A DNA stretch of 64,000 nt from an uncultured bacterium (lineage in GTDB: Bacteria > Oederibacteriota > Oederibacteriia > Oederibacteriales > Oederibacteriaceae), in NCBI GenBank assembly GCA_965112635.1, contig OZ218778.1:2112001-2176000 (forward strand), given 5' to 3'. Shown here piece by piece: positions 3,171 through 32,174 of the stretch; position 1 is the first letter of the stretch, and every line of letters begins with the position of its first letter. Both the position numbers and the translations under genes were made by a program. Below the pieces are notes generated by a model. It saw nothing but the letters and a program-made list of their open reading frames with translations. It searched no databases and was not told where the DNA came from.

Positions 3171-3218
3171 TCCCCTCGAACAACTTTTCCGCCGGATCCC
3201 AAAGAAAGGGTCTGAACC

Positions 3219-5876
3219 TTGAGCGAACTGACATCAAAGTACGAACCGCATCAGGTGGAGGCGGCCTGGTCCGCTATTTGGGCCGAAAAGGGCTTTTTTA
3301 AGGCCAGTTCTGACGGAACAAAAAAACCATATTGCATCGTCATTCCTCCGCCCAATGTGACAGGAGCCCTTCATTTCGGCCATGCCCTGAACAATACCCT
3401 GCAGGACATCCTCATCCGTTTTAAGAGGATGCAGGGATGCGACGCCCTTTGGATCCCGGGTACAGACCATGCCGGTATCGCCACGCAAAATGTGGTGGAA
3501 CGCCAGCTGGCCAAGGAACACGTGACCCGGCAGCAGTTAGGCCGCGAGAAGTTCGTCGAAAGGGTCTGGAAGTGGAAAGAGCAGTATGGAGGCCAGATCC
3601 TGAACCAGCTCAGGCGTCTGGGAGCTTCCTGCGATTTTTCCAGGGAACGGTTCACGATGGACGAGGGCCTGTCTGCGGCCGTGGCCGAAGTTTTTGTGAA
3701 GTTATACGAGGAAGGCCTGATCTATAGGAGCGAATATATCGTTAACTGGTGCCCGCGCTGCGGCACCGCGCTTTCAGACCTGGAGGTGGAATACCAGGAA
3801 TCCCAAGGCGAGCTTTACCATATCCTCTACCCCTTTCCAGGCGCAAAAGACAAGGGGATCGTCGTGGCCACTACCAGGCCGGAGACCATGCTGGGCGATA
3901 CGGCAGTGGCCGTGAACCCGGAGGACGGCCGATACCAGGGGGTCGTCGGAAAGACCGTCATCCTGCCTTTGCTCAACCGGGAGATCCCGCTTATTGCCGA
4001 CCCCTACGTGGATAAAACCTTCGGGACCGGCGCGGTCAAGATCACGCCTTCCCATGATCCCAATGATTTTCAGATCGGTAAAAAACACGGTCTCGCTTTC
4101 ATCAAAGTGATCCACACGGACGGGAAGATGACCAAAGAGGCCGGGCCTTATGCCGGACTGGACCGCTTTAGCTGCAGGAAAAAAGTGCTCGAAGACCTGG
4201 GGCAACAGGGGTGGCTGGTCAAAACCGAGCCGCACCTGAACGCCGTGGGGCATTGCCAGCGCTGCAAGACCGTGGTCGAACCCATGGTTTCCCTGCAGTG
4301 GTTCGTCAAGACCAAGCCGCTGGCCGAACCAGCCATCAAAGCTGTCAAAGAAAAACAGATCCATATCGTCCCGGAGACTTGGAGCAAGACTTATTTTGAT
4401 TGGATGGAGAATATCAGGGACTGGTGCATTTCCCGCCAATTATGGTGGGGCCACCGCATTCCTGTCTGGTATTGCCAGGATTGCGGAGAGATCAACGTGG
4501 CCAAGTTGGCGCCGGTAAAGTGCAAGAAATGCGGTAAATCCAACCTCAAACAGGATGAGGACGTGCTGGACACCTGGTTCAGCTCCGGATTGTGGCCGTT
4601 TTCGACCTTGGGTTGGCCCAATCAAACAAAAGACCTACAGCGCTTTTATCCCACTGATTGCCTGGTCACTGCTTTTGACATCATCTTTTTCTGGGTGGCC
4701 CGGATGATCATGATGGGAATACACTTTACCGGCCAAGTGCCATTTAAAGACGTGTATATCCACGCCCTGGTGCGGGACGCCGAGGGCAAGAAAATGAGCA
4801 AATCCAGGGGCAATGTCGTGGATCCCTTGGAAATGATAGACAAGTACGGCTGCGACGCTTTGCGGTTCACCCTGGCGGCGCTGGCGGCGCAGGGCAGGGA
4901 CGTGGCCTTGGACGAGGACCGCATCAACGGCTATAGGAATTTTTGCAATAAACTGTGGAACGCCAACCGCTTCTTTTTTATGAACTGCGGAGAGATCGTG
5001 CCCAAGGGTATCGAGGAAATTAACAAGGCCGGTCTCAGCCTGTTCGACCGGTGGATATTGAGCAGGCTGGACCAGGTAGCGACCGATGTCAAAGAGGCCC
5101 TGGACGGTTACAGGTTCAATGACGCGGCACTGGCCATTTACGATTTTACCTGGCATGAGTACTGCGACTGGTATGTGGAGCTAACCAAACCCTCCTGCGC
5201 CAACCCAGGGCCGGATAAAGACCGGGTGCTGGCAGTCCATCTCTTTGTGCTGGACACGGTCCTCAGGCTGCTGCATCCTTTTATGCCGTTCATTACAGAA
5301 GAGATATGGAATAATCTTCCATTTGCCAGCAAGCCAGCGCAGAGTCTTTGCGTGGCAGATTGGCCCGAACTTAAGAATAAGTACCGTGACGTTCCTGCTG
5401 GAATGGATATGGATCTGATCATTCAGGCTGTGACCGCCGTAAGGAATCTGCGCAGCGGTTATCATGTTCCGCCCGGCTTAAAACTTAATATTTCCATCAA
5501 GGTAAAGACATTAGAGGAAGAGGCACTTTTGGAGAAGTACGAGCAACTGCTGACCGGTTTGTTCAAGGCAGAGAAGCTTGTTCTAGGTACAAAGATAGAG
5601 AAGCCGAAATTGTGCGCTGAGTCGTTCCTCGGCGATATCGAGGTCTATGTTCCCCTGGGCTCTTTTCTGGACATCGAACAGGAAAAGGCCAAGGTACTCA
5701 AGGAAAAGGAAAAGATGGGCCAGCTCATTGGACAACTGGAGCAGCGCTTGGCTGACAAGCACTTCCTGGCCAAAGCCCCGGAACACCTCATTCAGCAGGA
5801 AAAAGCCAAGGCCCAGGATTGGGCCGCCCAAAGGGATAAGCTGGATGAATATTTGCGCCGTCTCAAGGGAGAATAG
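3219..5876 (+). CDS. valS: Valine--tRNA ligase
   Basis: PPPNVTG-LHFGH (HIGH), [28 protein letters not shown]-terminal coiled coil. Confidence 0.98.
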
Positions 5877-5882
5877 CAGTCA

Positions 5883-6734
5883 ATGAAAAAAGCCATGAGG
5901 GTCGATCCGGCTGAGGTCCGGGCCATTATCCAAAAGGCGTTAATGGAAGACAAGGTGCGGCGTGACATTACCACGCACGGCATCATTGATCCGCATATCC
6001 ACGGCCAGGGTTATTTCGTGGCCAAGCAGGAGGGCGTGCTCGCGGGCCTGGACGTGGCCCGGGAGGTTTTTAGAATAGTGGATAAGGACGTTAAATTCAA
6101 AAAGCTGCTTTCGGACGGGGCGAGGGTCAAAAAAGATGCGGTGCTGGCCAAGGTTGTAGGACGGGCCATCTCTTTGCTCCAAGCCGAAAGGACTTCCCTG
6201 AATTTTTTGCAGCATTTGAGCGGGGTAGCCACTCTGGCCTCCCGTTTTGTGGAAAAGGTCAAAGGGACCGGGGCGGTCATTTTGGACACGCGCAAGACCA
6301 TCCCCGGTTTCCGCTTATTACAGAAATACGCCGTGCGGAAAGGCGGCGCCACCAATCACCGCATGGACTTAGCTGAATCCGTCCTGGTCAAAAATAACCA
6401 TTTTGAGTTCGTGGATTTTGAAGAAGGGGTCAAGAGGGCGGTAAGGAAAGTAAGGGGTAAAAAACCTGTCATCGTAGAGGTCACCAAGGTCTCCCAAGTT
6501 TTGCCGGCCATACGGGGGGGAGCCACCCGGCTTTTGCTGGATAACATGACCATTCCCCATATGAAACAGATCGTTTCCCAGGTCAAGGGCAGGGTGGAAC
6601 TGGAAGCTTCCGGTGGAATTGACCTGCACAACGTGCGCCAAGTCGCTCAAACAGGGGTCGATTTTATTTCAGTCGGGGCTTTGACCCATTCTGTCCGAGC
6701 TATGGACATCAGCCTGGTCATCAAAGGTTCTTGA
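5883..6734 (+). CDS. nadC: Nicotinate-nucleotide diphosphorylase (quinolinate phosphoribosyltransferase)
   Basis: AERTSLNFLQHLSGVAT, DTRKTIPG, NHR, LLLDNM, EASGGI, ISVGALTHS. Confidence 0.95.
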   Translation: MKKAMRVDPAEVRAIIQKALMEDKVRRDITTHGIIDPHIHGQGYFVAKQEGVLAGLDVAREVFRIVDKDVKFKKLLSDGARVKKDAVLAKVVGRAISLLQAERTSLNFLQHLSGVATLASRFVEKVKGTGAVILDTRKTIPGFRLLQKYAVRKGGATNHRMDLAESVLVKNNHFEFVDFEEGVKRAVRKVRGKKPVIVEVTKVSQVLPAIRGGATRLLLDNMTIPHMKQIVSQVKGRVELEASGGIDLHNVRQVAQTGVDFISVGALTHSVRAMDISLVIKGS

Positions 6735-6782
6735 GCCTTAACCCCATTGCCTTCAACCCTAACAAGATAGGTAGAAGCACCT

Positions 6783-7586
6783 ATGCCCAAACTTGAATCT
6801 CTTTTGCCCGAAAAGATCCAAAAACACCTCAAAACGAACTCGCTGGGCAAAGTGGTGTTGGTGTTCCGCACCATTGATTCCACCAACGGGTTCGCCCTGA
6901 AGCTGATTGACCCCAAACACGGGACTTTGGTCCTGGCGGAGACCCAGACCAGGGGAAGGGGGAGGCTTGGCCGCAAATGGCATTCTGCGGACCACAAGGG
7001 CATTTGGCTGACCCTTATCCTCAAGCCCTCAGCAGGTTTGGTGCAGCCCGCATCCCTCACTATGTTGATGGCTTTGAGCATCGTGGAAACCTTAAAGCGG
7101 GATTATAGCCTGGATTGCGCCATCAAATGGCCCAATGATATTTATCTGAACCACAAAAAGGTTTGCGGCATTCTGACCGAAGCAAAAACAACCTCGAACA
7201 GGGTTGAGTTTTACGCCCTTGGGGTAGGGTTGAATGTCAACCAGACAAACCGTAATTTTCCGGCGGAATTGCGCAGGCTTGCCTCATCGCTGAGAATTGA
7301 AACAGGCCGGAAGTTGTCCCGCCCTACGCTGATCCAAAAAATATTGCTCCGTTTTGAGGAGCATTTTAAAGAGTTTCAGGGCCAGGGTTTTGCCCGATTC
7401 CTACCCCAGTGGGAAGGGATGAGCGAAACCATCGGCAAGCAGGTCAAAATAGCGACCGGACGCCGGACTTTGGAGGGGCTGGCTGTGGGACTGGATACGG
7501 ACGGAAGCCTGTTGGTCAGATTGGACAGCGGGGTGGTCCATAAAGTCCATGCCGGAGATATCACCCATTTAACCTTAAAGACTTGA
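6783..7586 (+). CDS. birA: Biotin--[acetyl-CoA carboxylase] ligase, without N-terminal HTH
   Basis: DSTN, QTRGRGRLGRKW, IKWPNDI, KVCGILTE, GVGLNVN. Confidence 0.93.
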   Translation: MPKLESLLPEKIQKHLKTNSLGKVVLVFRTIDSTNGFALKLIDPKHGTLVLAETQTRGRGRLGRKWHSADHKGIWLTLILKPSAGLVQPASLTMLMALSIVETLKRDYSLDCAIKWPNDIYLNHKKVCGILTEAKTTSNRVEFYALGVGLNVNQTNRNFPAELRRLASSLRIETGRKLSRPTLIQKILLRFEEHFKEFQGQGFARFLPQWEGMSETIGKQVKIATGRRTLEGLAVGLDTDGSLLVRLDSGVVHKVHAGDITHLTLKT

Positions 7587-10204
7587 TGGAGAAGAGGGCA
7601 GCTATGGTTCAGGGTATTAGAGATCCAAAACTTTCCGGGCTGTCCGAACAGGAAGCCGCAGCCAGGCTAAAAAAGTACGGTTATAACGAGATCCAGGTCC
7701 TACAGGGGTACGGCCATTTGCAGTCTTCTGTGCCCCGGCACATCCTAAATATCCTCGCCAACACTTTGAAAGAACCCATGTTCCTGCTATTGATCGCCTG
7801 CACGGCCGTTTTTTTCTTGCTGGGGGAATACAAGGACGGCGCCGTTCTTCTGTGCTTTGTCGTTGTCATGATGACCATTAGCTTTTACCAGGAGCGCAAG
7901 ACTGAAAGGGCCCTGGAGGCCCTGAGGGACCTCTCGAGTCCCCGCGCTTTGGTGATCCGGCAGGGCGTGGAAAAACGTATCGCCGGACGGGAAGTGGTGC
8001 CGGGGGATATTTTGGTACTTGCCGAAGGAGACCGTGTGCCGGCGGACGGGCAGGTCCTTTTCAGCCAGAACCTTTCCGTGGATGAGTCCTTGTTAACCGG
8101 TGAATCCGTGCCTGTCCGCAAGACAGAGTGGAAGGAAGGTCTGGCGCCCACGGCCCAGCCCGGCGGCCAGGATACGCCCTATATCTACTCCAGCACTCTG
8201 GTCGTGCAGGGCTATGCCTATGCCGAAGTCCAAGCCACGGGCATGAAGACCGAAGTTGGGAAGATAGGCAAGGTTTTGCAAAGTATCAAGCCTGTTGAGA
8301 CCAGCTCCCAAAAACAGAACAAAAAGATGGTCGTGGTGCTGGCTGGTTTGGGCGGGTTGTTATGTATCCTGGTCATTGTGATCTATGGGTTGACCAGGGG
8401 TGACTGGATCCATGCCCTGCTGGCAGGTCTTACCTTGGCCATGGCTATGTTACCCGAAGAGTTCCCGGTCGTTCTCACGGTTTTTATGGCCCTCGGCGCC
8501 TGGCGAATGTCAAAGAAAAGGGTGCTGACGCGCAACCTTCCAGCCATCGAAACGCTCGGTTCGACCACAGTCTTATGCGTGGATAAGACCGGGACCTTAA
8601 CGATGAACCAGATGACCGTCACATCCCTTTGTGTCCAGGATGACCACTACGACATAAACTCATCCGTTAAAAATGTTTTGCCGGATAAGTACCACGAGTT
8701 GGTGGAATTCGGCATCCTGGCCAGTCAGTTGGAGGATTTTGACCCCATGGATCGGGCCATCAAGCGGCTTGGTGACCCCTTTATTCTGCCTTTTGAACAT
8801 CACCACCAGGATTGGGAGCATATCCGGGAATACTCTCTTTCCAAGACATTGATGGCGCTTTCCCATGTCTGGCGGTCCAGAGAAGGCAAGGACTACGTGA
8901 TCGCCGCTAAAGGGGCGCCTGAGGCCATCATGGAGCTGTGTCATTTGGACCAGGAAGCGAAGCAAAAGGTGATGCAGAACATCAACCGATTGGCCCGCAG
9001 GGGGTTCAGGATTTTGGCTGCCGCGAAAGGGTATTTTAAAAGCGATTTTTTACCTAAAGAACAACATGATTTTAATTTTGAATTTTTGGGTTTGCTCGGT
9101 CTGTCCGACCCTGTCAGGCCCCAGGTCCCTGAGGCCGTGAAGGAATGTTATGAGGCCGGCATCCGCGTCATCATGATCACAGGCGATTATCCTGAAACCG
9201 CCGTCAATGTGGCCATGGAAATAGGGCTGGAAAACCCGGATAAAGTGTTGACCGGTTCTGTCATCGAGGCGTTGGGTGACAGCGAACTGGCAGCCAGGCT
9301 CAAGGAAGTCAATGTATATGCCCGGATGGCCCCGGAACAGAAATTACGGCTGGTCAAAGCCCTCCAAGCCAATGCTGAGGTCGTGGCCATGACCGGTGAC
9401 GGGGTCAATGACGCAGCAGCGCTCAAGACCGCGGATATCGGTATCGCCATGGGTGAGCGCGGCTCCGATGTGGCCCGCGAATCCGCCGATCTGGTCCTTT
9501 TGAACGATGATTTTAACTCCATCGTCCAGGCGGTCAGGCTGGGAAGGCGTATTTTTGGTAACCTAAGAAAATCCATGGCTTACCTTTTTTCCGTCCATGC
9601 CCCGATAGCCTGTATTTCGCTGACCCCGGTGCTTTTACACTGGCCCCTGCTTTTACTGCCTGTCCATATTACTTTTTTGGAGTTTATCATTGACCCGGCC
9701 TGCTCGGTCATATTTGAAGCAGAGGCCGAAGAAAAGAACTCCATGAAGCAACCGCCCCGCAGGATCGACGCTCCTATTATCGATAAGCTTTCTATTTTTT
9801 TCAGTTTACTGCAGGGGATGTTCGTGTTTTTTATCATGCTTTGCGTGTTGCTCGTATCTAAATGGTTCGGCCAGAACGATAATGATATCAGGGCTATGAT
9901 ATTCAGTATCCTTGTGATCACTAACCTAAGTTTGATCTTTATCAACCGGTCTTGGACCAAGAACATCCTGGAAACCTTGCGCGAGCCCAATCACTTTCTT
10001 TGGCTCGTCACTTTAGGCACCTTGGTATTATTGTGCGTTATTCTGTATGTGCCGGCGTTACAAGACATATTTAAGTTTGGCAGGCTGCCTTGGCACGGAC
10101 TGCTAGTGTGTTTTGGCTCAGGATTACTCTGCATCCTTGTGAATGAAGCGGTCAAATTTACGTTCAGGAACCGTACGAAGTTAAACCCGGGATTGAAATT
10201 TTAA
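7583..10204 (+). CDS. Cation-transporting P-type ATPase (type II, Ca2+-like)
   Basis: DESLLTGES, PEEFP, DKTGTLT phosphorylation site, KGAPE, MITGD, MTGDGVNDA and about 10 TM segments. The start could be 7586 or 7604. Confidence 0.92.
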   Translation: MMEKRAAMVQGIRDPKLSGLSEQEAAARLKKYGYNEIQVLQGYGHLQSSVPRHILNILANTLKEPMFLLLIACTAVFFLLGEYKDGAVLLCFVVVMMTISFYQERKTERALEALRDLSSPRALVIRQGVEKRIAGREVVPGDILVLAEGDRVPADGQVLFSQNLSVDESLLTGESVPVRKTEWKEGLAPTAQPGGQDTPYIYSSTLVVQGYAYAEVQATGMKTEVGKIGKVLQSIKPVETSSQKQNKKMVVVLAGLGGLLCILVIVIYGLTRGDWIHALLAGLTLAMAMLPEEFPVVLTVFMALGAWRMSKKRVLTRNLPAIETLGSTTVLCVDKTGTLTMNQMTVTSLCVQDDHYDINSSVKNVLPDKYHELVEFGILASQLEDFDPMDRAIKRLGDPFILPFEHHHQDWEHIREYSLSKTLMALSHVWRSREGKDYVIAAKGAPEAIMELCHLDQEAKQKVMQNINRLARRGFRILAAAKGYFKSDFLPKEQHDFNFEFLGLLGLSDPVRPQVPEAVKECYEAGIRVIMITGDYPETAVNVAMEIGLENPDKVLTGSVIEALGDSELAARLKEVNVYARMAPEQKLRLVKALQANAEVVAMTGDGVNDAAALKTADIGIAMGERGSDVARESADLVLLNDDFNSIVQAVRLGRRIFGNLRKSMAYLFSVHAPIACISLTPVLLHWPLLLLPVHITFLEFIIDPACSVIFEAEAEEKNSMKQPPRRIDAPIIDKLSIFFSLLQGMFVFFIMLCVLLVSKWFGQNDNDIRAMIFSILVITNLSLIFINRSWTKNILETLREPNHFLWLVTLGTLVLLCVILYVPALQDIFKFGRLPWHGLLVCFGSGLLCILVNEAVKFTFRNRTKLNPGLKF

Positions 10205-10243
10205 GCTGTTCCAGGATAAAATCAAAGTAATTAAAGATCAATC

Positions 10244-10357
10244 CACACCCACTGCTTTTAATTATTGGAACAATAGCAGTGGGTGTGCCCCGCCAACTCG
10301 CTGGCGCGAGTTTCTGGGCTGGATTTTTATCCAGCCTAGCGGCGGATAAAAATCCAG
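10244..10357. repeat. Three consecutive inverted repeats in the rubrerythrin leader
   Basis: CACACCCACTGCT 10244-56 / AGCAGTGGGTGTG 10275-87; AACTCGC 10295-301 / GCGAGTT 10306-12; CTGGATTTTTATCC 10319-32 / GGATAAAAATCCAG 10344-57. Confidence 0.85.
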
Positions 10358-10375
10358 GACTAGGAGGAAAGCTAA

Positions 10376-10948
10376 ATGGGGAAATCTTTGAGAGGAACCA
10401 AGACAGAGCAAAATCTTTTAAAGGCGTTTGCCGGAGAATCCCAGGCCAGGAACCGTTACACCTTTTTCGCGAGCGCTGCTAAAAAGGAAGGTTTTGAGCA
10501 TATCGCAAAGACCTTCCTGGAGACCGCGGACAATGAAAAAGAGCACGCCAAGCTGTTCTTTAAATATTTAGAAGGGGGAGAAGTGGAGATCACGGCTTCT
10601 TATCCGGCCGGCATGATCATGAGCACCCTGTCGAATCTAAAAGCCGCAGCAGATGGCGAGAACATGGAGTGGGGAACCCTATATCCTGACTTTGCCAAAG
10701 TGGCCAGCGAAGAGGGCTTTCCTGAAGTTGCCAATACTTTTGTGCAGATCGCCAAAGTTGAGAAGTTCCATGAGGAGCGGTATCGCAAGCTGGCGGATGA
10801 CGAGTCCAAGGGAACGGTATTTAAAAGAGCGATCAAAGTAAAGTGGCACTGCATGAACTGCGGGATGATTATCGAGAGCACCGAAGCGCCTAATATTTGC
10901 CCGGCTTGCAAGCATCCCCAGGCTTACTATGAGGTCCTTGGAGAATAG
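10376..10948 (+). CDS. rbr: Rubrerythrin
   Basis: [18 protein letters not shown] and EKFHEERY diiron motifs; C-terminal rubredoxin CMNC...CPACKHP; RBS AGGAGG. Confidence 0.96.
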
Positions 10949-10981
10949 AAAACATTTCTGCAATGCGGGCTGAAATGGAAA

Positions 10982-11398
10982 ATGGCTGATTATAACAAGA
11001 TAGGGGTATTGATCCTGAGGGACAAGAAAATCCTGATGTGCCGCAAGGACAACACCACTTCCAAATTGATCATGCCCGGCGGCTGCCTGGAGCAGGGAGA
11101 AGCGCCTTTGCAGTGCCTTCAGCGCGAGCTGAGGGAAGAGCTGGGTGAAGTCTCCCTTTCCAATCTTATTTACCTTGGCACTTATGCCGATAAGGCGGCT
11201 GTGGACGATCCGAAAGTGCATAAGACTTTGGAGATGGAGTTGTATCAGGGGGAGCTGACGGGCAGCCCCAGCCCCCATTCCGAGATCAAAGAACTAGTTT
11301 GGTACGGCAAGGAAGATGACCGCAGCTTCCTGACCCCCATCATGCTTAACAAGATACTACCTGACCTGATCAAACGCCGCATCTTGCCCTGGGAATAA
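10982..11398 (+). CDS. NUDIX hydrolase
   Basis: Nudix box PGGCLEQGEAPLQCLQRELREELG; PHSEIKELVW. Confidence 0.9.
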   Translation: MADYNKIGVLILRDKKILMCRKDNTTSKLIMPGGCLEQGEAPLQCLQRELREELGEVSLSNLIYLGTYADKAAVDDPKVHKTLEMELYQGELTGSPSPHSEIKELVWYGKEDDRSFLTPIMLNKILPDLIKRRILPWE

Positions 11399-11430
11399 GG
11401 GCATTGACCTTCCTGAATGACTGACAAGAG

Positions 11431-13317
11431 GTGACCTTGAAAAAGATCGAGTTGCTGGCCCCGGCTAAAGATTTGGAGTGCGGGAAAACCGCAATCGATT
11501 GCGGGGCTGATGCTGTTTACATGGGAGGCCCCTATTTCGGCGCCCGCGAAGCCGCGGCCAACTCCATCGAAGATATTGCGGCCATGGTCAAATACGCCCA
11601 TCCTTATTGGGCCAATGTTTATGTCACGATAAATACTATCCTCAAAGATGAAGAAGTCCTCCGGGCGGTCAACCTCATCAAGGAGCTGTACCAGATTGGC
11701 GTGGACGGTGTCCTTATCCAGGATGTCGGCCTTTTAGAATGCGACCTCCCAGCCATCCCTCTTATCGCCAGCACCCAGATTCACAATGCCTCTCCACAAC
11801 AGGTCGCTTTTTTGCAAAAAGCGGGTTTTAAACGGGCTGTCTTGGCCAGGGAACTGGACCTGGGCCAGATCCGGGCCATCCGCCAGGCAGCGCCGGATAT
11901 TGAGCTGGAGTTTTTCGTGCACGGAGCCCTATGCGTGGGTTACAGCGGTCAATGCTACCTGAGCTATTGCATGGGAGGCCGCAGCGCCAACCGGGGTGTC
12001 TGCGCCCAGCCTTGCCGCAAACCCTACCATTTGGTGGACAAGCACGGCTTGGTCAGAATTGACGGAAAATATCTCTTATCTCTGGCTGACCTCAATCTTT
12101 CCAGCCACTTGGGGTTACTTTTGGATAATGGCATCACTTCATTTAAAATCGAAGGCCGTCTCAAAGATAAGAACTATGTAGCCAATACCACGGCATTTTA
12201 TAGGGCTGAGATAGACAAGATTCTTAAGCACAAAAAAATGGCCAGGTCCTCCAGCGGGAGCTCCAAAATTGGGTTTGTGCCGGACGTCAACAAGACTTTT
12301 AACCGGGGCTACACGACCAGTTATTTTCTTTTTGGCCGCCGGAAACCTGTAGGGCAGCCATTGACGCCGAAGATGACAGGGGAGGCCGTGGGCAAAGTCA
12401 AGGCGGTCACTCAGGACGGGCTGGTCCTGGAAACTGCAGCGCTTCTCAAGCCCGGTGACGGCATCAGTTTTTTTGACCAGCAGATGAGGCTTTGCGGCAC
12501 TTCCATTGAAACGGTCAAGGGCAAAGCCATCACGGTCACAAAAAAACAGGGCCTTTTCCCAGGAACCGTTATTTTCCGCAACCATGACCATGAATTTTTG
12601 AGCAGTTTGGCCCGCAGTCCCAAACAGCGGGCTATTGCAGTGAAATTTATTCTTCGGACAGTAGCGGGGGGGTTGGAGTTATCCGTCAGGGATGAGGACG
12701 GCAATGAAGCCATGGCTATATGGAAAGGCAAGCTCGAACCCGCTGAAAATGCCGATAAGGCCCTGGCCAATATTTCCAGCCAACTTAAAAGCACGGGCGG
12801 AACAATATTCCGATGCGATACCGTTGAGGCCCATTGTGAACCTGTGTGTTTTCTCCGTACCGCTGAGCTGAATAGCCTGCGCCGGGACGCCCTAAAAAAG
12901 CTGGCGGATGCCAGAGTTCTGAACCGCCCTAAAAAGGAATCACCGTTGATCCCCAACGCAGAGCCCTATTTCCAAAAGGACCTGACCTACCAGGGCAATG
13001 TCCTCAACCGCTGGGCGCGGGCTTTTTACCAGAGGCACGGAGTTTCCCGTATGGAACCGGCGGCAGAAGCAGGAAAGGACATGGCCGGGCACAAGGTGAT
13101 GATGACCCGTTATTGCCTTAAATACGATTTTGGCCTATGTCAAAAGATGGGGAGCAAAAAAATCCTGGCAGAGCCATTATTCCTCATCGACGAGGAAGGA
13201 CATAAGCTTCGGCTGGAGTTTGATTGCAAGCGCTGCGGTATGAATATTTTCCTGGAAAAACCAAGCCATACCGGGCATCCAGCAAACTCCGGGCAGGTTG
13301 TCAAAAACACCAAGTAA
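11431..13317 (+). CDS. Peptidase U32 family Fe-S RNA hydroxylase, long RlhA-like form
   Basis: ELLAPA, GADAVYMG, HGALCVGYSGQC...SANRGVCAQPCR, SFKIEGR, plus a long C-terminal extension. Confidence 0.88.
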   Translation: MTLKKIELLAPAKDLECGKTAIDCGADAVYMGGPYFGAREAAANSIEDIAAMVKYAHPYWANVYVTINTILKDEEVLRAVNLIKELYQIGVDGVLIQDVGLLECDLPAIPLIASTQIHNASPQQVAFLQKAGFKRAVLARELDLGQIRAIRQAAPDIELEFFVHGALCVGYSGQCYLSYCMGGRSANRGVCAQPCRKPYHLVDKHGLVRIDGKYLLSLADLNLSSHLGLLLDNGITSFKIEGRLKDKNYVANTTAFYRAEIDKILKHKKMARSSSGSSKIGFVPDVNKTFNRGYTTSYFLFGRRKPVGQPLTPKMTGEAVGKVKAVTQDGLVLETAALLKPGDGISFFDQQMRLCGTSIETVKGKAITVTKKQGLFPGTVIFRNHDHEFLSSLARSPKQRAIAVKFILRTVAGGLELSVRDEDGNEAMAIWKGKLEPAENADKALANISSQLKSTGGTIFRCDTVEAHCEPVCFLRTAELNSLRRDALKKLADARVLNRPKKESPLIPNAEPYFQKDLTYQGNVLNRWARAFYQRHGVSRMEPAAEAGKDMAGHKVMMTRYCLKYDFGLCQKMGSKKILAEPLFLIDEEGHKLRLEFDCKRCGMNIFLEKPSHTGHPANSGQVVKNTK

Positions 13318-26714: not shown

Positions 26715-26730
26715 CCCCGCGCCTGCCTCT

Positions 26731-26766
26731 CCTTCGGCGTTTCGTCATTCGCCGTAACGCCGAAAT
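26731..26766 (+). repeat. 36-nt hairpin element B, copy 1
   Basis: CCTTCGGCGTTTCGTCATTCGCCGTAACGCCGAAAT; 31/36 identical to 27881-27916; TTCGGCGTT/AACGCCGAA stem. Confidence 0.85.
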
Positions 26767-26892
26767 GGGTTGAAGGACCTGAACATGCTCAAGCATGCGT
26801 GCTTTAGCACGTGGTCCTTCAACGGGTATATTCCATAAATACTTAAGAAGATGTACCCTGGAAAGAGGAAAATCAGGTTATTGTTTTGGTGA
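26767..26892 (+). repeat. Structured element A, copy 1 (with a 28-nt loop insert)
   Basis: GGGTTGAAGGACCTGAA-[CATGCTCAAGCATGCGTGCTTTAGCACG]-TGGTCCTTCAACGGGTATATTCCATAAATACTTAAGAAGATGTACCCTGGAAAGAGGAAAATCA...TATTGTTTTGGTGA; near-identical to 27437-27533. Confidence 0.9.
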
Positions 26893-26944: not shown

Positions 26945-27400
26945 ATGCCAATCGTACATCTAACATTTAAAATGAGTAGATCAAAAGGCGCGACAGCATT
27001 GATTCGATCGTACCATAAGCCTCATGTTATGGATCAAGGCCATTCAGTTTTTCCTGAAATAGCTTTTGTTCGGCTAAAAAAACGCCAGGGCTGGAATGCT
27101 GTTTGGGCCGACGCCTACAAGGATCGCATCTGGAAATCAATGAAAATTCGTGGTGGCATTAATTTGTTGCCTGAATGGATTAAAGAAAAATTGCCATTAA
27201 GAAACAAAAATAAACCGCTATCAGGATGCTGGGATGTTGTGGCGTGGAAAGGCCGGAAAATAAGGTTTTATGAATTAAAACATAAGGGGTCGGACAAAAT
27301 GAGGCCCAATCAAATTTCCTGGAAAAGAACAGCTATGCGGAGAATGGGATTAACCTCCAAGAATTTTGTCCTTGTTGAATGGAATAAAACAGCGAAATAA
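26945..27400 (+). CDS. Putative PD-(D/E)XK nuclease (VRR-NUC-like)
   Basis: E (FPEIAF), GCWDVVAW, FYELKH and D-x-M-R-P-N-Q follow the VRR-NUC pattern. Confidence 0.6.
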   Translation: MPIVHLTFKMSRSKGATALIRSYHKPHVMDQGHSVFPEIAFVRLKKRQGWNAVWADAYKDRIWKSMKIRGGINLLPEWIKEKLPLRNKNKPLSGCWDVVAWKGRKIRFYELKHKGSDKMRPNQISWKRTAMRRMGLTSKNFVLVEWNKTAK

Positions 27401-27436: not shown

Positions 27437-27533
27437 GGGTTGAAGTACCTGAATGGTACTTCAACGGGTATATTCCATAAATACTTAAGAAGATGTGCCC
27501 TGGAAAGAGGAAAATCAACATATTGTTTTAGTG
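27437..27533 (+). repeat. Structured element A, copy 2
   Basis: GGGTTGAAGTACCTGAATGGTACTTCAACGGGTATATTCCATAAATACTTAAGAAGATGTGCCCTGGAAAGAGGAAAATCA...TATTGTTTTAGTG. Confidence 0.9.
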
Positions 27534-27548
27534 GAATAGGAGGAAAGT

Positions 27549-27866
27549 ATGGCTCTAAAGGAAAGCAGTTTCCGATGTTCCAGGCTGTGCCACATTTTGG
27601 GAAATCCGGTGACATACAAAATACTGGAAGCCCTGCTGGATAAACCCCGCTACACACCCTCAGAGTTAGCCAAAAAAACCCATAGAACGGTCTCTACCAT
27701 TTCAGGGCATTTGAAAAACATGAGGCTTGCGGACCTGGTCCGTTTTGAAGCCAGAGGCAATCAAATGATGTACAGGATTAAATATAGGAAACAAGCCAGA
27801 GCCATCGTTGAAACACTTAAGAAATATGTGGCAGTTGCAGGCCGTTCTTCATCTTCCCAGCCCTAA
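27549..27866 (+). CDS. ArsR/SmtB-type winged-helix regulator
   Basis: LGNPVTYKILEAL...TPSELAKKTHRTVSTISGHLKNMRLADLVRFEARG; RBS AGGAGG. Confidence 0.85.
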   Translation: MALKESSFRCSRLCHILGNPVTYKILEALLDKPRYTPSELAKKTHRTVSTISGHLKNMRLADLVRFEARGNQMMYRIKYRKQARAIVETLKKYVAVAGRSSSSQP

Positions 27867-27880
27867 ACCTCATCCAATCC

Positions 27881-27916
27881 CCTTCGGCCATTCGGCGATC
27901 GCCGTAACGCCGAAAT
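27881..27916 (+). repeat. 36-nt hairpin element B, copy 2
   Basis: CCTTCGGCCATTCGGCGATCGCCGTAACGCCGAAAT, 14 nt after the ArsR stop. Confidence 0.85.
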
Positions 27917-27964: not shown

Positions 27965-28002
27965 TAGGATATTGTAATTTGTAATAAGGAGGAGTGATTT
28001 TA

Positions 28003-29295
28003 ATGACACAGCTAGCCCTGTTATCACCAAATATAGGCCGAAGTGTTGATGCAACATCATCAACATTTTCAAATAATATGTCATTGCCAATACATAGATG
28101 GTTCCGCTATTCAGCAGGTTTCTCTGGAATTTGGGTTAGAGAAACTATTGAGTCTCGTAGGATAAAAAATTCAAATTTGCATGTTTATGACCCTTTTGCT
28201 GGTTCTGGTACTGTTCTAATAGAAAGTCAGTTATGTGGGGTTGATGGCCTTGGCCTTGAGCCACATCCATTTGTACATAAAATTGCTGAAGCAAAGCTTC
28301 TTTGGCGGCGTGACGCAGAGAGTCTATTTAAGTTAGGATTAGCTCTTGTATCTAAAGCACGTGGTGTTAAAGGAAGTCTCTCTGGTTATCCTGTTTTGAT
28401 TCGGAAATGTTTTACAGATGACGTATTACTGGAGTTAGATTGTCTTAAAATTGTTTGGGACAAGATGGCCTCCAAAAAGATTTCCGACGATTTAAAGGTG
28501 TTATGGCTTTTATTAACGTCAATATTGAGGGAGTGTTCGCATGCCGGAACGGCACAATGGCAATATGTTCTGCCTAACAAACAAAAAGCAAAGGTCGGAA
28601 AACCTTTTATAGTTTTTCAAAAGAAGCTCGAAATGTTTTGTGACGATATAATGGCTGCTAAAAGTTATGACAATGGTGGAAAAGCAATAGTTATTAAGGG
28701 GGATGCTAGAAATTGTTCAGGGATTCCGTCAAATTGGGCAAACTTGGTCATTACATCTCCTCCATATGCAAATAATTATGATTATGCAGATGCCACTAGA
28801 CTGGAACTTTGTTTTTGGAAGGAAATTTCGGGGTGGTCTGATTTACAGGAAACAATAAGAAAACATCTTTTGAGATCCTGCACGCAACATGTTTCAGGTA
28901 TTAGCAACGACATTGATTTATTACTTAGTGACCCGCTCCTTGAACCAATTCGATCTGAGATTAGGTCTGTTTGCCAACAGTTGGCTTTAGAACGTGTGAA
29001 TCATGGTGGTAAAAAACAATACCATGTTATGATTGCTGCTTATTTCAAGGATTTAGCGGCTTGTTGGAAAGAATTGCGCCGTATAACGACTAAGAATGCG
29101 GAAGTTTGTTTTGTAATTGGTGATTCGGCTCCTTATGGCATTTATGTTCCTGTTGATATATGGTTAGGAAAATTAGCATTGTCAGTTGGTTTTCGTTCCT
29201 TCAATTTTGAACAGACCAGAGTTAGAAATTTAAAATGGAAAAATAGAAAGCACCGTGTTCCTCTAAAAGAGGGACGTCTTTGGGTGAAAGGATAA
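28003..29295 (+). CDS. DNA N4-cytosine methyltransferase (motif I before SPPY)
   Basis: HRWFRYSAGFS, YDPFAGSGT (SAM binding), ITSPPY (catalytic), FVIGDS. Start ATG 28003 after AGGAGG. Confidence 0.88.
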   Translation: MTQLALLSPNIGRSVDATSSTFSNNMSLPIHRWFRYSAGFSGIWVRETIESRRIKNSNLHVYDPFAGSGTVLIESQLCGVDGLGLEPHPFVHKIAEAKLLWRRDAESLFKLGLALVSKARGVKGSLSGYPVLIRKCFTDDVLLELDCLKIVWDKMASKKISDDLKVLWLLLTSILRECSHAGTAQWQYVLPNKQKAKVGKPFIVFQKKLEMFCDDIMAAKSYDNGGKAIVIKGDARNCSGIPSNWANLVITSPPYANNYDYADATRLELCFWKEISGWSDLQETIRKHLLRSCTQHVSGISNDIDLLLSDPLLEPIRSEIRSVCQQLALERVNHGGKKQYHVMIAAYFKDLAACWKELRRITTKNAEVCFVIGDSAPYGIYVPVDIWLGKLALSVGFRSFNFEQTRVRNLKWKNRKHRVPLKEGRLWVKG

Positions 29296-29297
29296 CT

Positions 29298-30176
29298 GTG
29301 GCTGTATCACCTTCTCATAAATTTGGTCAGATTATAGGCGACGTTCTTGAGGCTGCAATCGAACCATTTCTAACTGAATTTGCAAAAAATAATGGTCTAT
29401 TTTTGGATAAGAAAGGATCTAGGCCAGCAAGGTCTGGAAAGAAAGTGGCATGGAGGGACCTAAACGGAAACTTGCATGACTTGGATTTTGTATTAGAAAG
29501 AGGTGGTACAGGAGAGAAAATTGGAATTCCAGTGGCTTTTATTGAATCGGCCTGGCGTAGATATACAAAACATTCTAGAAACAAAGCCCAGGAAATCCAA
29601 GGTGCCATTATTCCATTATCAGCAACATATAGGGCATCAGCTCCATTTTTGGGAGCTATTCTAGCTGGTGAATTTACTGGTGGAGCACTGAAGCAACTCA
29701 AATCTCTTGGGTTTGTGGTGCTTTACTTCTCCTATCCGGCAGTTGTTAAAGCATTCAGGTCAATGGGACTAGATGCTTCTTTTGATGAAAATACACCAGA
29801 TAAGGATTTCTCCAAAAAGATACAAAAATGGAATAGCCTTTCTATTACTAATCAACGGAAAATTGCTAATAGCCTTGTTGCGAAAAATATTAAATCTGTA
29901 AAAACATTTCTTGCCAGTTTAGAAAGAACTGTGGATAGAAAAATATTGGAATTTAGTATTTTGCCTCTCCACGGGAGGGCTTTTAATTTTCCTTCCGCAG
30001 ATAAGGCAATTGATTTTCTTGTCAAATATGACACTAGTAAAAATTTAGCCTCTATTCATAGGATTGAGATTTCTATTAAATACAGCAATGGTAATATCTT
30101 TGAGGCAAAATTTATTAACACGGATGAGGCTATTGATTTTCTACAGACATATAAAGGGATTAGACTTTCAAACTAA
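29298..30176 (+). CDS. Type II restriction endonuclease, NcoI-like
   Basis: GQIIG, GNLHDLDFVLERGG and AFIESAWRRYTKHSRNKAQEIQGA match my recollection of R.NcoI; directly follows the m4C MTase; GTG start at 29298. Confidence 0.8.
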   Translation: MAVSPSHKFGQIIGDVLEAAIEPFLTEFAKNNGLFLDKKGSRPARSGKKVAWRDLNGNLHDLDFVLERGGTGEKIGIPVAFIESAWRRYTKHSRNKAQEIQGAIIPLSATYRASAPFLGAILAGEFTGGALKQLKSLGFVVLYFSYPAVVKAFRSMGLDASFDENTPDKDFSKKIQKWNSLSITNQRKIANSLVAKNIKSVKTFLASLERTVDRKILEFSILPLHGRAFNFPSADKAIDFLVKYDTSKNLASIHRIEISIKYSNGNIFEAKFINTDEAIDFLQTYKGIRLSN

Positions 30177-30437
30177 TTGGAAGAAATTTAGGTAAGGTTT
30201 TCATAAACAATATTTTCCCCGCCTCCCCCCGACCCATTTTCAGCTTTTCAGGCCTTGCCTTTAGACCCCCGAAATCCTCAAACAATCAATGTTTCCATTT
30301 TCGCATTTTTCTTTGTGCATTACTGCGTAAAGTATTGTTTTAGTGAGAAAAGAGGCAGTAGTAGGTAAGAAAACTAATAGGTAGAGACCTAGTTCTAATT
30401 CATATCTTTAGGAATAGTTAAAAAATATCTTTATGCA

Positions 30438-30466
30438 TTGACAATATCCATCTTTTACGCTACAAT
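30438..30466 (+). promoter_or_regulatory. Near-consensus sigma70 promoter of the small-HTH/GGDEF operon
   Basis: TTGACA (30438-43), 17 nt, TACAAT (30461-66). Confidence 0.75.
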
Positions 30467-30563
30467 AATAAATAAGATTCGGATATTAGTAATAGTAGAA
30501 ACCTTTTAAATTAAAGGATTATTTGAACATTGTATTACCATCATATATTATTGCATAGGTAAA

Positions 30564-30803
30564 ATGAGGCTAAATGATATGAAAAATAAAGGCAATTTAA
30601 CATTGGAGTCAACAAACAAGCTTTTGATGGTATTGATAGCTCTTCTCTTAAGACGGAAAGAAGAAAATATTGCTACTCTTAGACAGCAGGTTAAAACTTT
30701 AAGCGATTTAGGTCTAAAGCCATTGGTGATAGCAGAAATATTAGGAAGATCAAGTAACTATATAAATAAGGAAATTTATAGTCTAAAAAAGGAGGAAAAA
30801 TAA
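30564..30803 (+). CDS. Small protein A: amphipathic helix plus HTH
   Basis: NKLLMVLIALLL...LSDLGLKPLVIAEILGRSSNYINKEIYSLK; the start may be ATG 30579. Confidence 0.75.
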   Translation: MRLNDMKNKGNLTLESTNKLLMVLIALLLRRKEENIATLRQQVKTLSDLGLKPLVIAEILGRSSNYINKEIYSLKKEEK

Positions 30804-30806
30804 ATT

Positions 30807-30995
30807 ATGGGAAAGCAGAATCAAATTAAAGAGAAAGTAGTTGAAAATCTATTGCGCGATCTACTAATTGTGCAGCTTGGTCTTGCCGGTCTGACACAGC
30901 ATCAGATTAGAGAAATTGTGCAGGTTGATATACATCAAGTAAATCGAATTGTAAAACATTTGAGAGGAGGAAAAAATGAAAAGATCAAAATCTAA
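30807..30995 (+). CDS. Small protein B: amphipathic helix plus HTH
   Basis: ENLLRDLLIVQL-GLAGLTQHQIREIVQVDIHQVNRIVKHL; RBS AGGAGG upstream. Confidence 0.75.
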   Translation: MGKQNQIKEKVVENLLRDLLIVQLGLAGLTQHQIREIVQVDIHQVNRIVKHLRGGKNEKIKI

Positions 30996-31155
30996 AACAA
31001 TTGATCAGAAATTGGACGTTGTTGTTGATCTTTTACGCCATTTACTTGTGTTGGAGTTGCATAAGGAAGGTGTAATTCAGGACAATATTTGCAGACAACT
31101 TCATATAACAAAGCAAACAGTTGTCGATATGTTGAAGGGAGTTAAACATGAGTGA
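30976..31155 (+). CDS. Small protein C (59 aa, missed by the ORF track): amphipathic helix plus HTH
   Basis: GAGGAGG RBS at 30964-70; MKRSKSKTIDQKLDVVVDLLRHLLVLELHKEGVIQDNICRQLHITKQTVVDMLKGVKHE*; overlaps B and D and fills the gap between them. Confidence 0.8.
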   Translation: MKRSKSKTIDQKLDVVVDLLRHLLVLELHKEGVIQDNICRQLHITKQTVVDMLKGVKHE

Positions 31156-31384
31156 AAAAATACTCGAAGATATATCTAATAAGCTGAACATATTAATTTC
31201 ACTATCAATAAAACAATTAAATGGGGATAAGGATTTTAGTAATAAATCAACGCGGAAACGGGGTGTTGGTGATTATGCAAGATACCTGGCTAATTATGGA
31301 ATTGATGCAAAAGAAATATCAAGGATACTTAATGCTCCTTTACAAAGCATAAGAACACTTTTAACACCAAAGCGGAGTAAATGA
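31148..31384 (+). CDS. Small protein D: amphipathic helix plus HTH
   Basis: ILEDISNKLNILISLSI...ARYLANYGIDAKEISRILNAPLQSIRTLL; ATGAGTGA overlap with C. Confidence 0.75.
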   Translation: MSEKILEDISNKLNILISLSIKQLNGDKDFSNKSTRKRGVGDYARYLANYGIDAKEISRILNAPLQSIRTLLTPKRSK

Positions 31385-31385
31385 A

Positions 31386-32174
31386 ATGTCGCGGCCCCGT
31401 TTTCTCGATTTAAAAATAATGACAAAAATTGCAAATAAAATTAGAAAAAGTGTAAAAAGAGTTAATAGTTTGGTGAGTAAAAAGGCTAGTAAGTATAGAA
31501 TTTCCACAAAAGCAGCTTTGGCGCTGGTGGCGAAAGATTATAATGTCCCAACAACAGTTTACCAGAATAAATTGGAACCATCCGAGCGCGAAGAGTTTCG
31601 TAGTACTCTATTATTAGCAAATAACATAAATGATCATGGAAGTAAAAAGAAAAAAGTTGTCTCTCAATATCGGCAGAAGCAACAAAAATTCAAAATACTT
31701 GATGCTCCCGGATTATTATCAAAAGATTTGCAGTCGATCGATGGGTTTTTTGGTATAGCAGTTCTATTTATTGATCTCGACGATTTTAAATTTCTCAATT
31801 CAAATTTTACTGAGACTGTTGTTGATAAAGAGATACTGCCATCGGTGCATAATTTGCTAAAACGTTGCGTAAATTATTATGGGTATGCTTATGCAATGGG
31901 TGGAGATGAGTTTGCATATCTACTTCCAAATTGCACACAAAAAATGGCGATTGAATTTGCAAAAGCAGTTCGTAAGGAGATTGAAAGACTACAATTTTCT
32001 GGAAGTGTGGATTCAGTGAAACTCACCGCCTCGATTGGTCTTTCATATGAGCATCCTCCCTACTCAAAGGGATTGGATCATCAAAAAGCTGCTAACTTAG
32101 CAAAAAATCATGCCAAGGAATCTGGGAAAAATTGCGTCTGTGAATTAATAAAAACAAAATTCGTTATTCATTAA
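31386..32174 (+). CDS. Atypical GGDEF-domain nucleotide cyclase with a basic N-terminal helical domain
   Basis: AVLFIDLDDFKFLN, GGDEF, LTASIG, AKESGKN; N-terminal about 75 aa Lys/Arg-rich helical domain; starts 1 nt after the D stop. Confidence 0.85.
   Translation: MSRPRFLDLKIMTKIANKIRKSVKRVNSLVSKKASKYRISTKAALALVAKDYNVPTTVYQNKLEPSEREEFRSTLLLANNINDHGSKKKKVVSQYRQKQQKFKILDAPGLLSKDLQSIDGFFGIAVLFIDLDDFKFLNSNFTETVVDKEILPSVHNLLKRCVNYYGYAYAMGGDEFAYLLPNCTQKMAIEFAKAVRKEIERLQFSGSVDSVKLTASIGLSYEHPPYSKGLDHQKAANLAKNHAKESGKNCVCELIKTKFVIH

Follow-up and report, generated by a model that had tools for sequence, protein, structure and literature searches.

A GGDEF domain in place of the usual HEPN domain in a conserved operon of small helix-turn-helix genes from an uncultured bacterium

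Why should four very small helix-turn-helix (HTH) genes be packed in front of a gene for an unusual GGDEF enzyme? This question is raised by positions 30438-32174 of a stretch of 64,000 nucleotides (nt) from an uncultured bacterium of the Oederibacteriota (contig OZ218778.1, positions 2,112,001 to 2,176,000), which is referred to as the window in the following. An initial annotation of this DNA proposed that the small proteins form a heteromeric sensor controlling the enzyme within a new defence or signalling module. Comparison with relatives reveals a module that consists of an operon of three to five paralogous small HTH proteins, followed by a protein with a conserved N-terminal domain (N-domain), with a conserved control region. 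The window very probably carries a copy of this module in which the effector has been exchanged. The best overall explanation, to which we give somewhat more than even weight, is a horizontally moving, autoregulated module whose HEPN effector is replaced here by a GGDEF domain.

Five co-oriented open reading frames (ORFs), A to E, are packed on the forward strand within this interval, according to an ORF scan of the window. Gene A (30564..30803, +), a helix plus HTH protein of 79 amino acids (aa), probably starts at an alternative in-frame ATG at 30579, which is preceded by GAGG 9 nt upstream and yields 74 aa, the length of most orthologues. It is followed by gene B (30807..30995, +; 62 aa), a short helix plus HTH protein in the second position of the cassette, gene C (30976..31155, +; 59 aa), also of the short type and optional in the family, and gene D (31148..31384, +; 78 aa), a long helix plus HTH protein. 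Gene E (31386..32174, +; 262 aa) joins the N-domain to a GGDEF domain. A and B are separated by 3 nt, B and C overlap by 20 nt, C and D overlap by 8 nt, and D and E are 1 nt apart; a purine-rich, Shine-Dalgarno-like run can be read ahead of every gene. The five tightly packed or overlapping AT-rich ORFs of the initial annotation are all present as described, and every peptide string that it cited is found in the window translations. The A-E module is present in a single copy in its own 2.88-Mb genome, which carries six other, ordinary GGDEF genes.

Are the four small proteins related at all? Within the window alone, clear mutual similarity is seen only between B and C (BLASTP E 1.5e-5), and a Pfam scan returns weak HTH_23-type matches for A, B and C and no such match for D. 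Once relatives are added, all four align on a common plan of an N-terminal 'KLdxIIxLL' helix, a variable linker, the HTH and a lysine-rich tail. The single plan proposed at the outset is thus visible across the family, and in the window by itself it is clear only for B and C; the proposed 'long' subtype of A and D has to be given up, as these are separate orthologous groups with fixed positions. A profile built from seven small proteins gave 2,598 matches at E<=0.001 among 1.84 billion representatives. Its short, full-length matches include orthologues of A (P0188, P0179 and P0210) and of D (P0200), and in P0148 a C-like unit is naturally fused to a D-like one. The long, multi-repeat proteins among the top matches (P0081 and others) were rejected as family members, as only their HTH half matches and they represent generic HTH_23/HTH_24 arrays. 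These proteins (P0081-P0095 and others) carry 4-12 tandem HTH_23/HTH_24-type repeats, for example 12 in 740 aa or 5 in 268 aa.

A scan of metagenome contigs with the A-type alignment yielded 77 loci with A orthologues that are 44-69% identical, and the same scan gave no locus in viral contigs. Gene order is A-B-(C)-D in 59 of the 62 loci that are uncut by a contig end (ABCD, 27; ABD, 20; ABD with an extra small gene, 7; ABCD with an extra small gene, 4; ABCDB, 1), the exceptions being BD in two loci and A alone in one. C is present in the ABCD types (27+4+1 of the 62) and missing from the ABD types (20+7). Mean column identity within the orthologous groups is 71% for A, 70% for B and 79% for D (alignments A7, A8 and A9), and the window proteins are 51-72% identical to their groups. 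For D-type proteins, 777 clusters were retrieved at E<=1e-6 from a collection of 5.8 billion sequences, all unnamed or 'hypothetical'; two named clusters come from Candidatus Kuenenbacteria and the Parcubacteria group. Sequence searches of solved structures with A7, A9 and the N-domain alignment A10 returned only generic HTH or chance matches. These comparisons support the view that A-D form one family and a conserved, co-transcribed cassette.

How is this cassette controlled? The 260 nt located 5' of gene A were compared among 54 dereplicated regions, including that of the window, with shuffles as controls; the operator motifs were defined by our own regular expressions after inspection of the data. 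Promoter P1 (30438..30466, +; TTGACA-17-TACAAT; 11/12) is the top promoter-like site in the scanned 6 kb (26.7-32.7 kb), and P1-type sites (TTGACN-N16-18-TAnnnT) occur in 43 of the 54 regions, compared to 1.2 expected from shuffles. Directly 3' of the -10 hexamer of P1 lies the conserved box ATAAATAAGA (30468..30477, +), which fits the ungapped consensus derived from 38 anchored regions in register; ATAAATAA is the most frequent 8-mer and is present in 27 of the 54 upstream regions. An operator-like inverted repeat follows. Its first arm is located at 30486..30495 (+; TTAGTAATAG; family consensus AAGGTAATAG) and its second arm at 30532..30541 (+; GTATTACCAT), within the spacer of a second promoter, P2 (30523..30551, +; TTGAAC-17-TATTAT; 9/12). 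The inverted pair [AG]GTAA[TC] ... [GA]TTAC[CT] is found in 31 of the 54 regions (0.76 expected), with an arm spacing of exactly 45-46 nt in 27 of these 31; in the window, the arms lie at 30488 and 30534 and are 46 nt apart. P2 with the downstream arm in its spacer is present in 26 of the 54 regions versus 0.01 expected. The ungapped consensus of the 38 anchored regions reads ...TAAATAA.AT...AAAaGGTAaTa...ATTTGACAtTt.TATTACCTTggAaTATTATTga..., and the window fits it in register. This confirms the near-consensus promoter noted in the initial annotation; P1, the inverted repeat and P2 are all in place in the window. Since the cassette, its gene order and its promoter and operator layout recur in dozens of unrelated contigs, the cassette is more than a chance arrangement. 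The control region points to autoregulation by proteins that bind the spaced boxes, and we infer that A-D would be these proteins.

The second question concerns the gene that follows the cassette. The set used here comprised 61 loci with a forward-strand ORF of at least 90 aa that starts within 600 nt after the cassette. In 38 of these 61 proteins, phmmer detects residues 1-75 of E at E<1e-5 (lowest value 4.5e-22), and residues 96-262, the GGDEF part, match none of the 61 (best E 0.31). The similarity to relatives stops at about residue 76. The conserved, helical N-domain of E (residues 1-80; 31386..31625, +) is followed by a basic linker that is modeled with low confidence and forms the junction of the two modules (residues 81-95; 31626..31670, +) and by the GGDEF domain (residues 96-262; 31671..32174, +). 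In the largest class of relatives, comprising 31 loci, the N-domain is joined to PF09509 Hypoth_Ymh, a HEPN domain (E 8e-12 to 3e-17), and these proteins conserve RNKTHH, i.e. the R-x4-H motif. In a second class of 10 loci, a divergent N-domain is joined to a helical domain with an ANNKTHS motif; assignment of this domain (cluster 1) as a divergent HEPN was considered and is not established, since the motif was recognized by eye and Pfam gives no match. In a third class of eight loci, a winged HTH is joined to a Schlafen AlbA_2 domain (PF04326; E 8.5e-19 and 5.5e-17 for the two proteins that were scanned) and the N-domain is missing; a fifth small gene precedes this last gene in seven of the eight. 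The other ORFs behind the cassette are truncated last genes, an unrelated neighbour or spurious ORFs of flanks with high GC content.

A search of a larger collection for longer N-domain proteins gave 220 matches; among the 120 best, 119 carry PF09509 and the remaining one has no domain on record, which argues that the N-domain is an adaptor almost always paired with a Ymh HEPN. The initial expectation of a conserved N-domain with varying C-termini is supported by the 38 of 61 proteins that share it. Of the partners named at the time, HEPN is present in 31 loci and no TIR fusion was seen. The GGDEF domain, taken initially as the enzyme of the system, is a single exception. No N-domain-GGDEF fusion exists elsewhere among the 61 downstream proteins or the 120 best N-domain proteins, and the cluster of the E-type fusion (P0001) has one member sequence, making the fusion of the window unique in the data searched. 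E ends in a GGDEF domain and gives no match to PF09509, the usual C-terminus, which argues that the window is an effector-swap variant of the module. The N-domain itself shows no detectable homology to the small-protein family (hhalign probability 0.3%). It is modeled as a compact helical bundle (pLDDT ~85 over residues 10-50), for which Foldseek gave no match at E<=0.001. The archaeal RPA1 AROD was rejected as its fold, as the VIA-align comparison (Z 6.7, rmsd 2.1 A over 54 residues) falls in the range common for helical structures. Complex prediction with the A, B and D alignments against the N-domain gave a score of 0.00 with controls absent and weighs neither way.

What, then, is the enzyme that has taken this place? 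The proposed fusion of the N-domain to a GGDEF domain is firmly borne out by the match of E to PF00990 over residues 124-249 (E 1.1e-19; 71.2 bits, cut-off 23.8) and to TIGR00254 (61.2 bits, cut-off 37.4). The structural model has a pLDDT above 90 over residues 100-262 and below 50 for residues 77-91, and it superposes on DgcZ, PleD and other cyclases (Foldseek E 8e-12 for DgcZ; rmsd 2.2 A over 160 columns for 3ign). The GGDEF motif occupies residues 172-176. D130 and D132, which form the DLD metal site, are invariant in the subfamily of E and align with solved cyclases, and N138 and D147 are likewise invariant, with D147 aligning with an Asp of PA0861 and a Ser of 6d9m. N138 and D147 are positions that we take to specify guanine. 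In a residue-level alignment, these residues, the GGDEF motif and the AK..GKNCV of E line up with PA0861 and a Geobacter GGDEF enzyme. Given these intact catalytic and guanine-specifying residues, E is predicted to be an apparently active diguanylate cyclase. The usual product-inhibition site of GGDEF enzymes is the RxxD I-site. No RxxD was seen five residues before the GGDEF motif in the sequence of E, and the usual product inhibition is not expected because of this.

The closest GGDEF relatives of E form a rare subfamily of 13 clusters (P0002-P0014) and 14 genome loci (L001-L014), the latter from Myxococcota, Elusimicrobia, Scalindua and Acidobacteriota. They share residues 96-262 of E, including the QQKFKILDAP lead-in with its invariant KF.IL...D, and their N-termini are unrelated. 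Neither single-sequence nor family hidden Markov model searches detected the cassette near these 14 other genes, whose contexts are mixed and include, for one member, an alanyl-tRNA synthetase gene. E is thus a chimera of two mobile parts, joined in the basic linker at residues 77-95. Two further members of the subfamily have neighbours of separate note: the L001 gene adjoins a pair of OLD-type ATPase and UvrD helicase genes that is Gabija-like by domain content, and the L013 gene adjoins a gene for a 1,023-aa SMC-like ATPase.

The unique status of the fusion allows for an explanation by accident, in which recombination swapped HEPN for GGDEF, disarmed a toxic module and left a neutral or decaying chimera. 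The single known fusion (P0001) and the truncated last genes of several relatives (L094, 156 aa; L099, 96 aa; L111 and L114, 139 aa), which suggest frequent effector loss, are consistent with such a course. This explanation is nevertheless considered improbable: all five ORFs are intact and have ribosome-binding sites, both promoters and both arms are in place, the catalytic residues of E are preserved, and A-D resemble their orthologues (51-72%) no less than these resemble one another.

The properties of E also bear on the model of the initial annotation in its full form, in which A-D make up a heteromeric sensor of DNA and switch the GGDEF enzyme on upon infection. As in CBASS, type III CRISPR or Panoptes, the nucleotide product would then be a dedicated immune messenger for an effector encoded elsewhere. 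E bears a weak resemblance to the Cas10 palm (PF22335, E 1.1e-5, below the cut-off), its rare subfamily combines variable N-termini with members located beside the OLD-ATPase/UvrD and SMC-like genes, and GGDEF-like palm enzymes are established in nucleotide-signalling defence in the available text of two reports (PMC12657218, PMC12657230). Against this stand the mCpol score of 10 bits relative to a cut-off of 40, the weak PADLOC Cas10 match (E 0.011) and the family norm, which is a direct HEPN effector and not a signal generator. In addition, D147 and N138 predict guanine specificity, and the product would be confounded with the cyclic di-GMP (c-di-GMP) of the six other GGDEF genes. A cyclic-nucleotide defence pathway is doubtful because the window holds no linked receptor or effector gene for E, and the full model is regarded as quite unlikely.

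Does the genomic setting agree with a mobile module? The cassette lies at the right end of an island of ~27.0-32.2 kb with a GC content of 31-43%, compared to ~52% in the flanks and the genome. Upstream of the cassette and co-oriented with it are a type II DNA methyltransferase gene (27994..29295, +; PADLOC MTase_II, E 1.6e-123) and a type II restriction endonuclease gene (29280..30176, +; PADLOC REase_II, E 7.1e-74). Of the neighbours named in the initial annotation, this restriction-modification (R-M) pair is confirmed, and the 'nuclease', a 151-aa ORF at the left island edge (26945-27400), matches no family apart from a weak Cas4 hit (E 0.03) and is unconfirmed. The island also contains an ArsR-type HTH gene (~27538-27831), which recurs as an 89% identical second copy elsewhere in this genome, at ~2.4958 Mb. 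An 80-nt direct repeat (26812-26891 and 27454-27533; 93% identical) and a 39-nt hairpin-forming repeat (26728-26766 and 27878-27916) frame the first two genes of the island, and fragments of both repeats are found in at least five other places in the genome. A search for att-like direct or inverted repeats around A-E or the island gave scores of 18-25, within the range of shuffles (mean 18.5, max 26). To the right, the module is followed by genes for ordinary membrane proteins, PriA, Def and Fmt. Further along, positions 40000-64000 form a larger low-GC stretch (27-45%) with a long run of forward-strand ORFs, which is probably a second acquired island.

The island DNA was not found among the 40 relatives searched, and when a profile was run against 99 genomes from this phylum (98 besides its own), one distant relative emerged, in genome G036 (E 1.6e-8). 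In this variant (L087), three small genes are interleaved with genes for proteins of 304 and 257 aa that belong to no known family, within an AT-rich island beside a tyrosine integrase gene at a tmRNA gene. The island (G036:C11:9000-25000, 2660-11533) also contains a full-length PDC-S68 candidate (PADLOC E = 0). The 304-aa protein is 34% identical (E 2e-43) to the unassigned 270-aa product of the last gene in metagenome locus L149. Across the family, the GC content of the module is more than 5 points below that of its flanks in 31 of 55 measurable loci and above it in two. One peat metagenome DNA run contains a fraction of 0.23 of the query words.

A flank census covered 150 dereplicated proteins from 47 loci. 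Its commonest Pfam family is the N6_N4 DNA methylase, with eight proteins that also match PADLOC type II methyltransferase models, followed by Resolvase, Recombinase, Zn_ribbon_recom, PPDK_N and HTH_3 with three each and UvrD, Vsr, PIN and LexA/S24 with two each. The co-oriented order of methyltransferase gene, nuclease-like gene and cassette recurs in L097, L106, L107, L116 and L119/L120 with enzymes unrelated to those of the window; the nuclease-like gene is of HNH type by eye in L097 and L106, belongs to a 206-aa family in L107 and L119/L120 and encodes 372 aa in L116. A gene of ~536 aa lies 129-161 nt upstream of the cassette in seven loci and, as judged from matching Pfam member counts, probably encodes a large serine recombinase. 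The defence- or mobile-element-like context suggested initially thus holds, given the R-M pairs, the recombinases and PDC-S68 in G036. Two further types of neighbouring gene are recorded here. In L089-L092 and L110, a protein that combines a LexA DNA-binding domain with an S24 peptidase and an N6_N4 methyltransferase (520 aa; L092:2600-4159) is encoded divergently, 191-213 nt upstream of the cassette; the methyltransferase would be open to cleavage in the SOS response. The other type, a gene of 314-510 aa, follows the module by 55-202 nt in seven loci (e.g. L089, L132 and L138-L140); it probably belongs to the PPDK_N family (pyruvate phosphate dikinase N-terminal), again on the basis of matching Pfam counts, and may be an accessory component.

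Such neighbours raise the alternative that the operon is a mere regulatory cassette of a mobile element or an R-M system, with A-D as controller, repressor or excision regulators of the genes on the island, among them the adjacent integrase or restriction genes, and the last gene as cargo or as another DNA-binding regulator, free of any toxin logic. All four small proteins are HTH proteins, the conserved operator-like arms overlap the operon's own promoter, and the A profile weakly resembles the HTH of a plasmid-maintenance antidote (E 0.015). The direct neighbour of the cassette is a recombinase or integrase gene in G036 and in eight metagenome loci, and other copies adjoin R-M pairs. However, most loci keep a HEPN domain with an intact R-x4-H, which pure regulators would not need, and in most loci the examined flank is free of R-M pairs and recombinases alike. 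The controller proteins of R-M systems are single, small Xre-type HTH genes upstream of, and co-transcribed with, the endonuclease gene. A-D differ from this type, as they lie downstream of the endonuclease gene, behind a terminator-like hairpin (30311-30332), have promoters of their own and give no HTH_3 match in the Pfam scan. A purely regulatory role is accordingly held to be unlikely.

Which parts of the module are known from other systems? The Ymh family (PF09509 / TIGR02391) is described as a family of the HEPN superfamily with R-M neighbourhoods and variable N-terminal domains, and such HEPN proteins have been compared with PrrC and RloC, which serve as back-ups of restriction (Anantharaman et al., 2013; PMC3710099, available text). 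The usual last gene of the module resembles this family in its R-x4-H motif, its variable N-terminus and its location near R-M genes, whereas E of the window has no HEPN domain. Neither the N-domain nor a small-HTH cassette is mentioned in the available text of PMC3710099, and its Additional file 1 could list the N-domain. The same text describes the AbiJ architecture, in which one N-terminal module is combined with different enzymatic C-termini, as in the present module. The effector range of the module is narrow in comparison and overwhelmingly Ymh. The AbiJ_NTD models of Pfam match neither E (E<=1) nor 10 relatives (E<=0.1), and NTD1 and NTD2 may lack Pfam models. A multi-HTH cassette is not known to precede AbiJ proteins.

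Type II toxin-antitoxin systems provide another point of comparison. They share with the module the small HTH genes 5' of a putative RNase toxin, an operator, putative in the module, that overlaps the promoter and the location in mobile islands. In contrast to their two-gene autoregulated operons, the module combines the operator-like repeat in its promoter with five or six genes; it has three to five distinct conserved HTH proteins instead of one, its putative toxin has an adaptor of its own, and the 'toxin' of the window is a cyclase. E shares its fold and catalytic motifs with PleD, DgcZ and WspR, from which it differs by QQKFKILDAPGLL in place of DxLTGLxNRR, by the apparent lack of RxxD and by an N-terminal partner that is a cassette adaptor and not a REC, PAS, GAF or membrane sensor domain. 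Panoptes/mCpol (PMC12657218, PMC12657230; available text) likewise involves a small nucleotide cyclase of the palm type with defence-like neighbours, but E is a bona fide PF00990 protein with no adjacent effector gene and does not reach the mCpol model NF033576 (10 bits, E 1). For PD-Lambda-3 (PDLC03987; Vassallo et al., 2022, as given in the table of the review PMC10952713), only the effector domain is common, as the Ymh domain of relatives matches the C-terminal half of PADLOC PD-Lambda-3_B (E 6e-9 to 4e-6); A-D and E are unmatched. PADLOC 2.0.0 returned nothing for A-C, ZorC at E 0.037 for D and Cas10 at E 0.011 for E, in keeping with the first impression that no named defence system is matched. 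Pfam, NCBIfam and PADLOC 2.0 hold no model for the multi-HTH cassette or the adaptor domain, and neither these two nor the operator lattice turned up in the literature searched. The HTH regulators, the Ymh HEPN near R-M genes, the logic of an N-terminal adaptor and the GGDEF domain are parts of known kinds.

How could these parts work together? That the family is a conflict module, i.e. a toxin-antitoxin system, an abortive infection system or a guard of R-M, is about an even call, perhaps slightly better. Under this interpretation, A-D would occupy the operator boxes, thereby repressing the operon that encodes them, and they would hold the N-domain protein inactive, as in toxin-antitoxin or abortive-infection modules. 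Loss of this control would let the N-domain protein associate with itself; candidate triggers are an infection, the island being lost or the neighbouring restriction system failing. As HEPN RNases and GGDEF cyclases act only with two domains together, either type of enzyme would be activated in this way. For most relatives of the module, this would lead to cleavage of RNA and arrest of growth; in this genome, the product would be c-di-GMP or a closely related molecule. This signal would feed the c-di-GMP network of the cell itself, given the six other GGDEF genes and the lack of a linked receptor gene. The detail of activation by proximity is put forward tentatively and held to be less likely than not.

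Several observations weigh against the preferred explanation of a mobile, autoregulated module with an exchanged effector. To our knowledge, there is no precedent for four or five distinct antitoxin-like proteins acting on one toxin. A GGDEF cyclase is not a toxin, and the window variant for this reason cannot be a classical toxin-antitoxin or abortive-infection effector. The PF00990 match covers only profile positions 33-160, and E has no canonical DxLTGLxNRR lead-in; no gene for a c-di-GMP receptor or effector is linked to E in the window. About 40% of the 54 upstream regions have no operator motifs in the form searched. Searches of sequenced phages, plasmids and viral contigs turned up no copy of the module, many flank genes are housekeeping genes with methyltransferases making up just 8 of 150, and the PADLOC models give no match to module proteins beyond the partial one of Ymh to PD-Lambda-3_B. 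Finally, the DNA binding, protein-protein binding, toxicity and enzyme activity discussed here are all predictions from sequence.

With 777 D-type clusters, all of them hypothetical, the module looks common and yet unrecognized, a piece of 'dark matter' found in part in candidate-phyla-radiation genomes. The family represents a natural experiment in which the same cassette and adaptor are combined mostly with HEPN, with two other types of last gene and once with GGDEF. It opens the questions of how small DNA-binding proteins could jointly gate an enzyme, whether HEPN modules serve as guards when located beside restriction systems and whether a conflict sensor can be rewired to a second messenger, and the conserved promoter and operator lattice offers a handle for footprinting and reporter assays. 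In a bolder and rather doubtful reading, the cassette defines a new, widespread and modular family of immune or addiction systems, in which an array of four or five distinct small HTH proteins on a fixed operator lattice would gate dimer-only enzymes via the adaptor, and in which a conflict sensor has here been rewired to c-di-GMP signalling. If this were true, the gated enzyme would be a HEPN RNase in most bacteria, many of them of the candidate phyla radiation, and in this bacterium a device that senses infection or the loss of an island or restriction system would be coupled to the lifestyle signalling of c-di-GMP and not to arrest.

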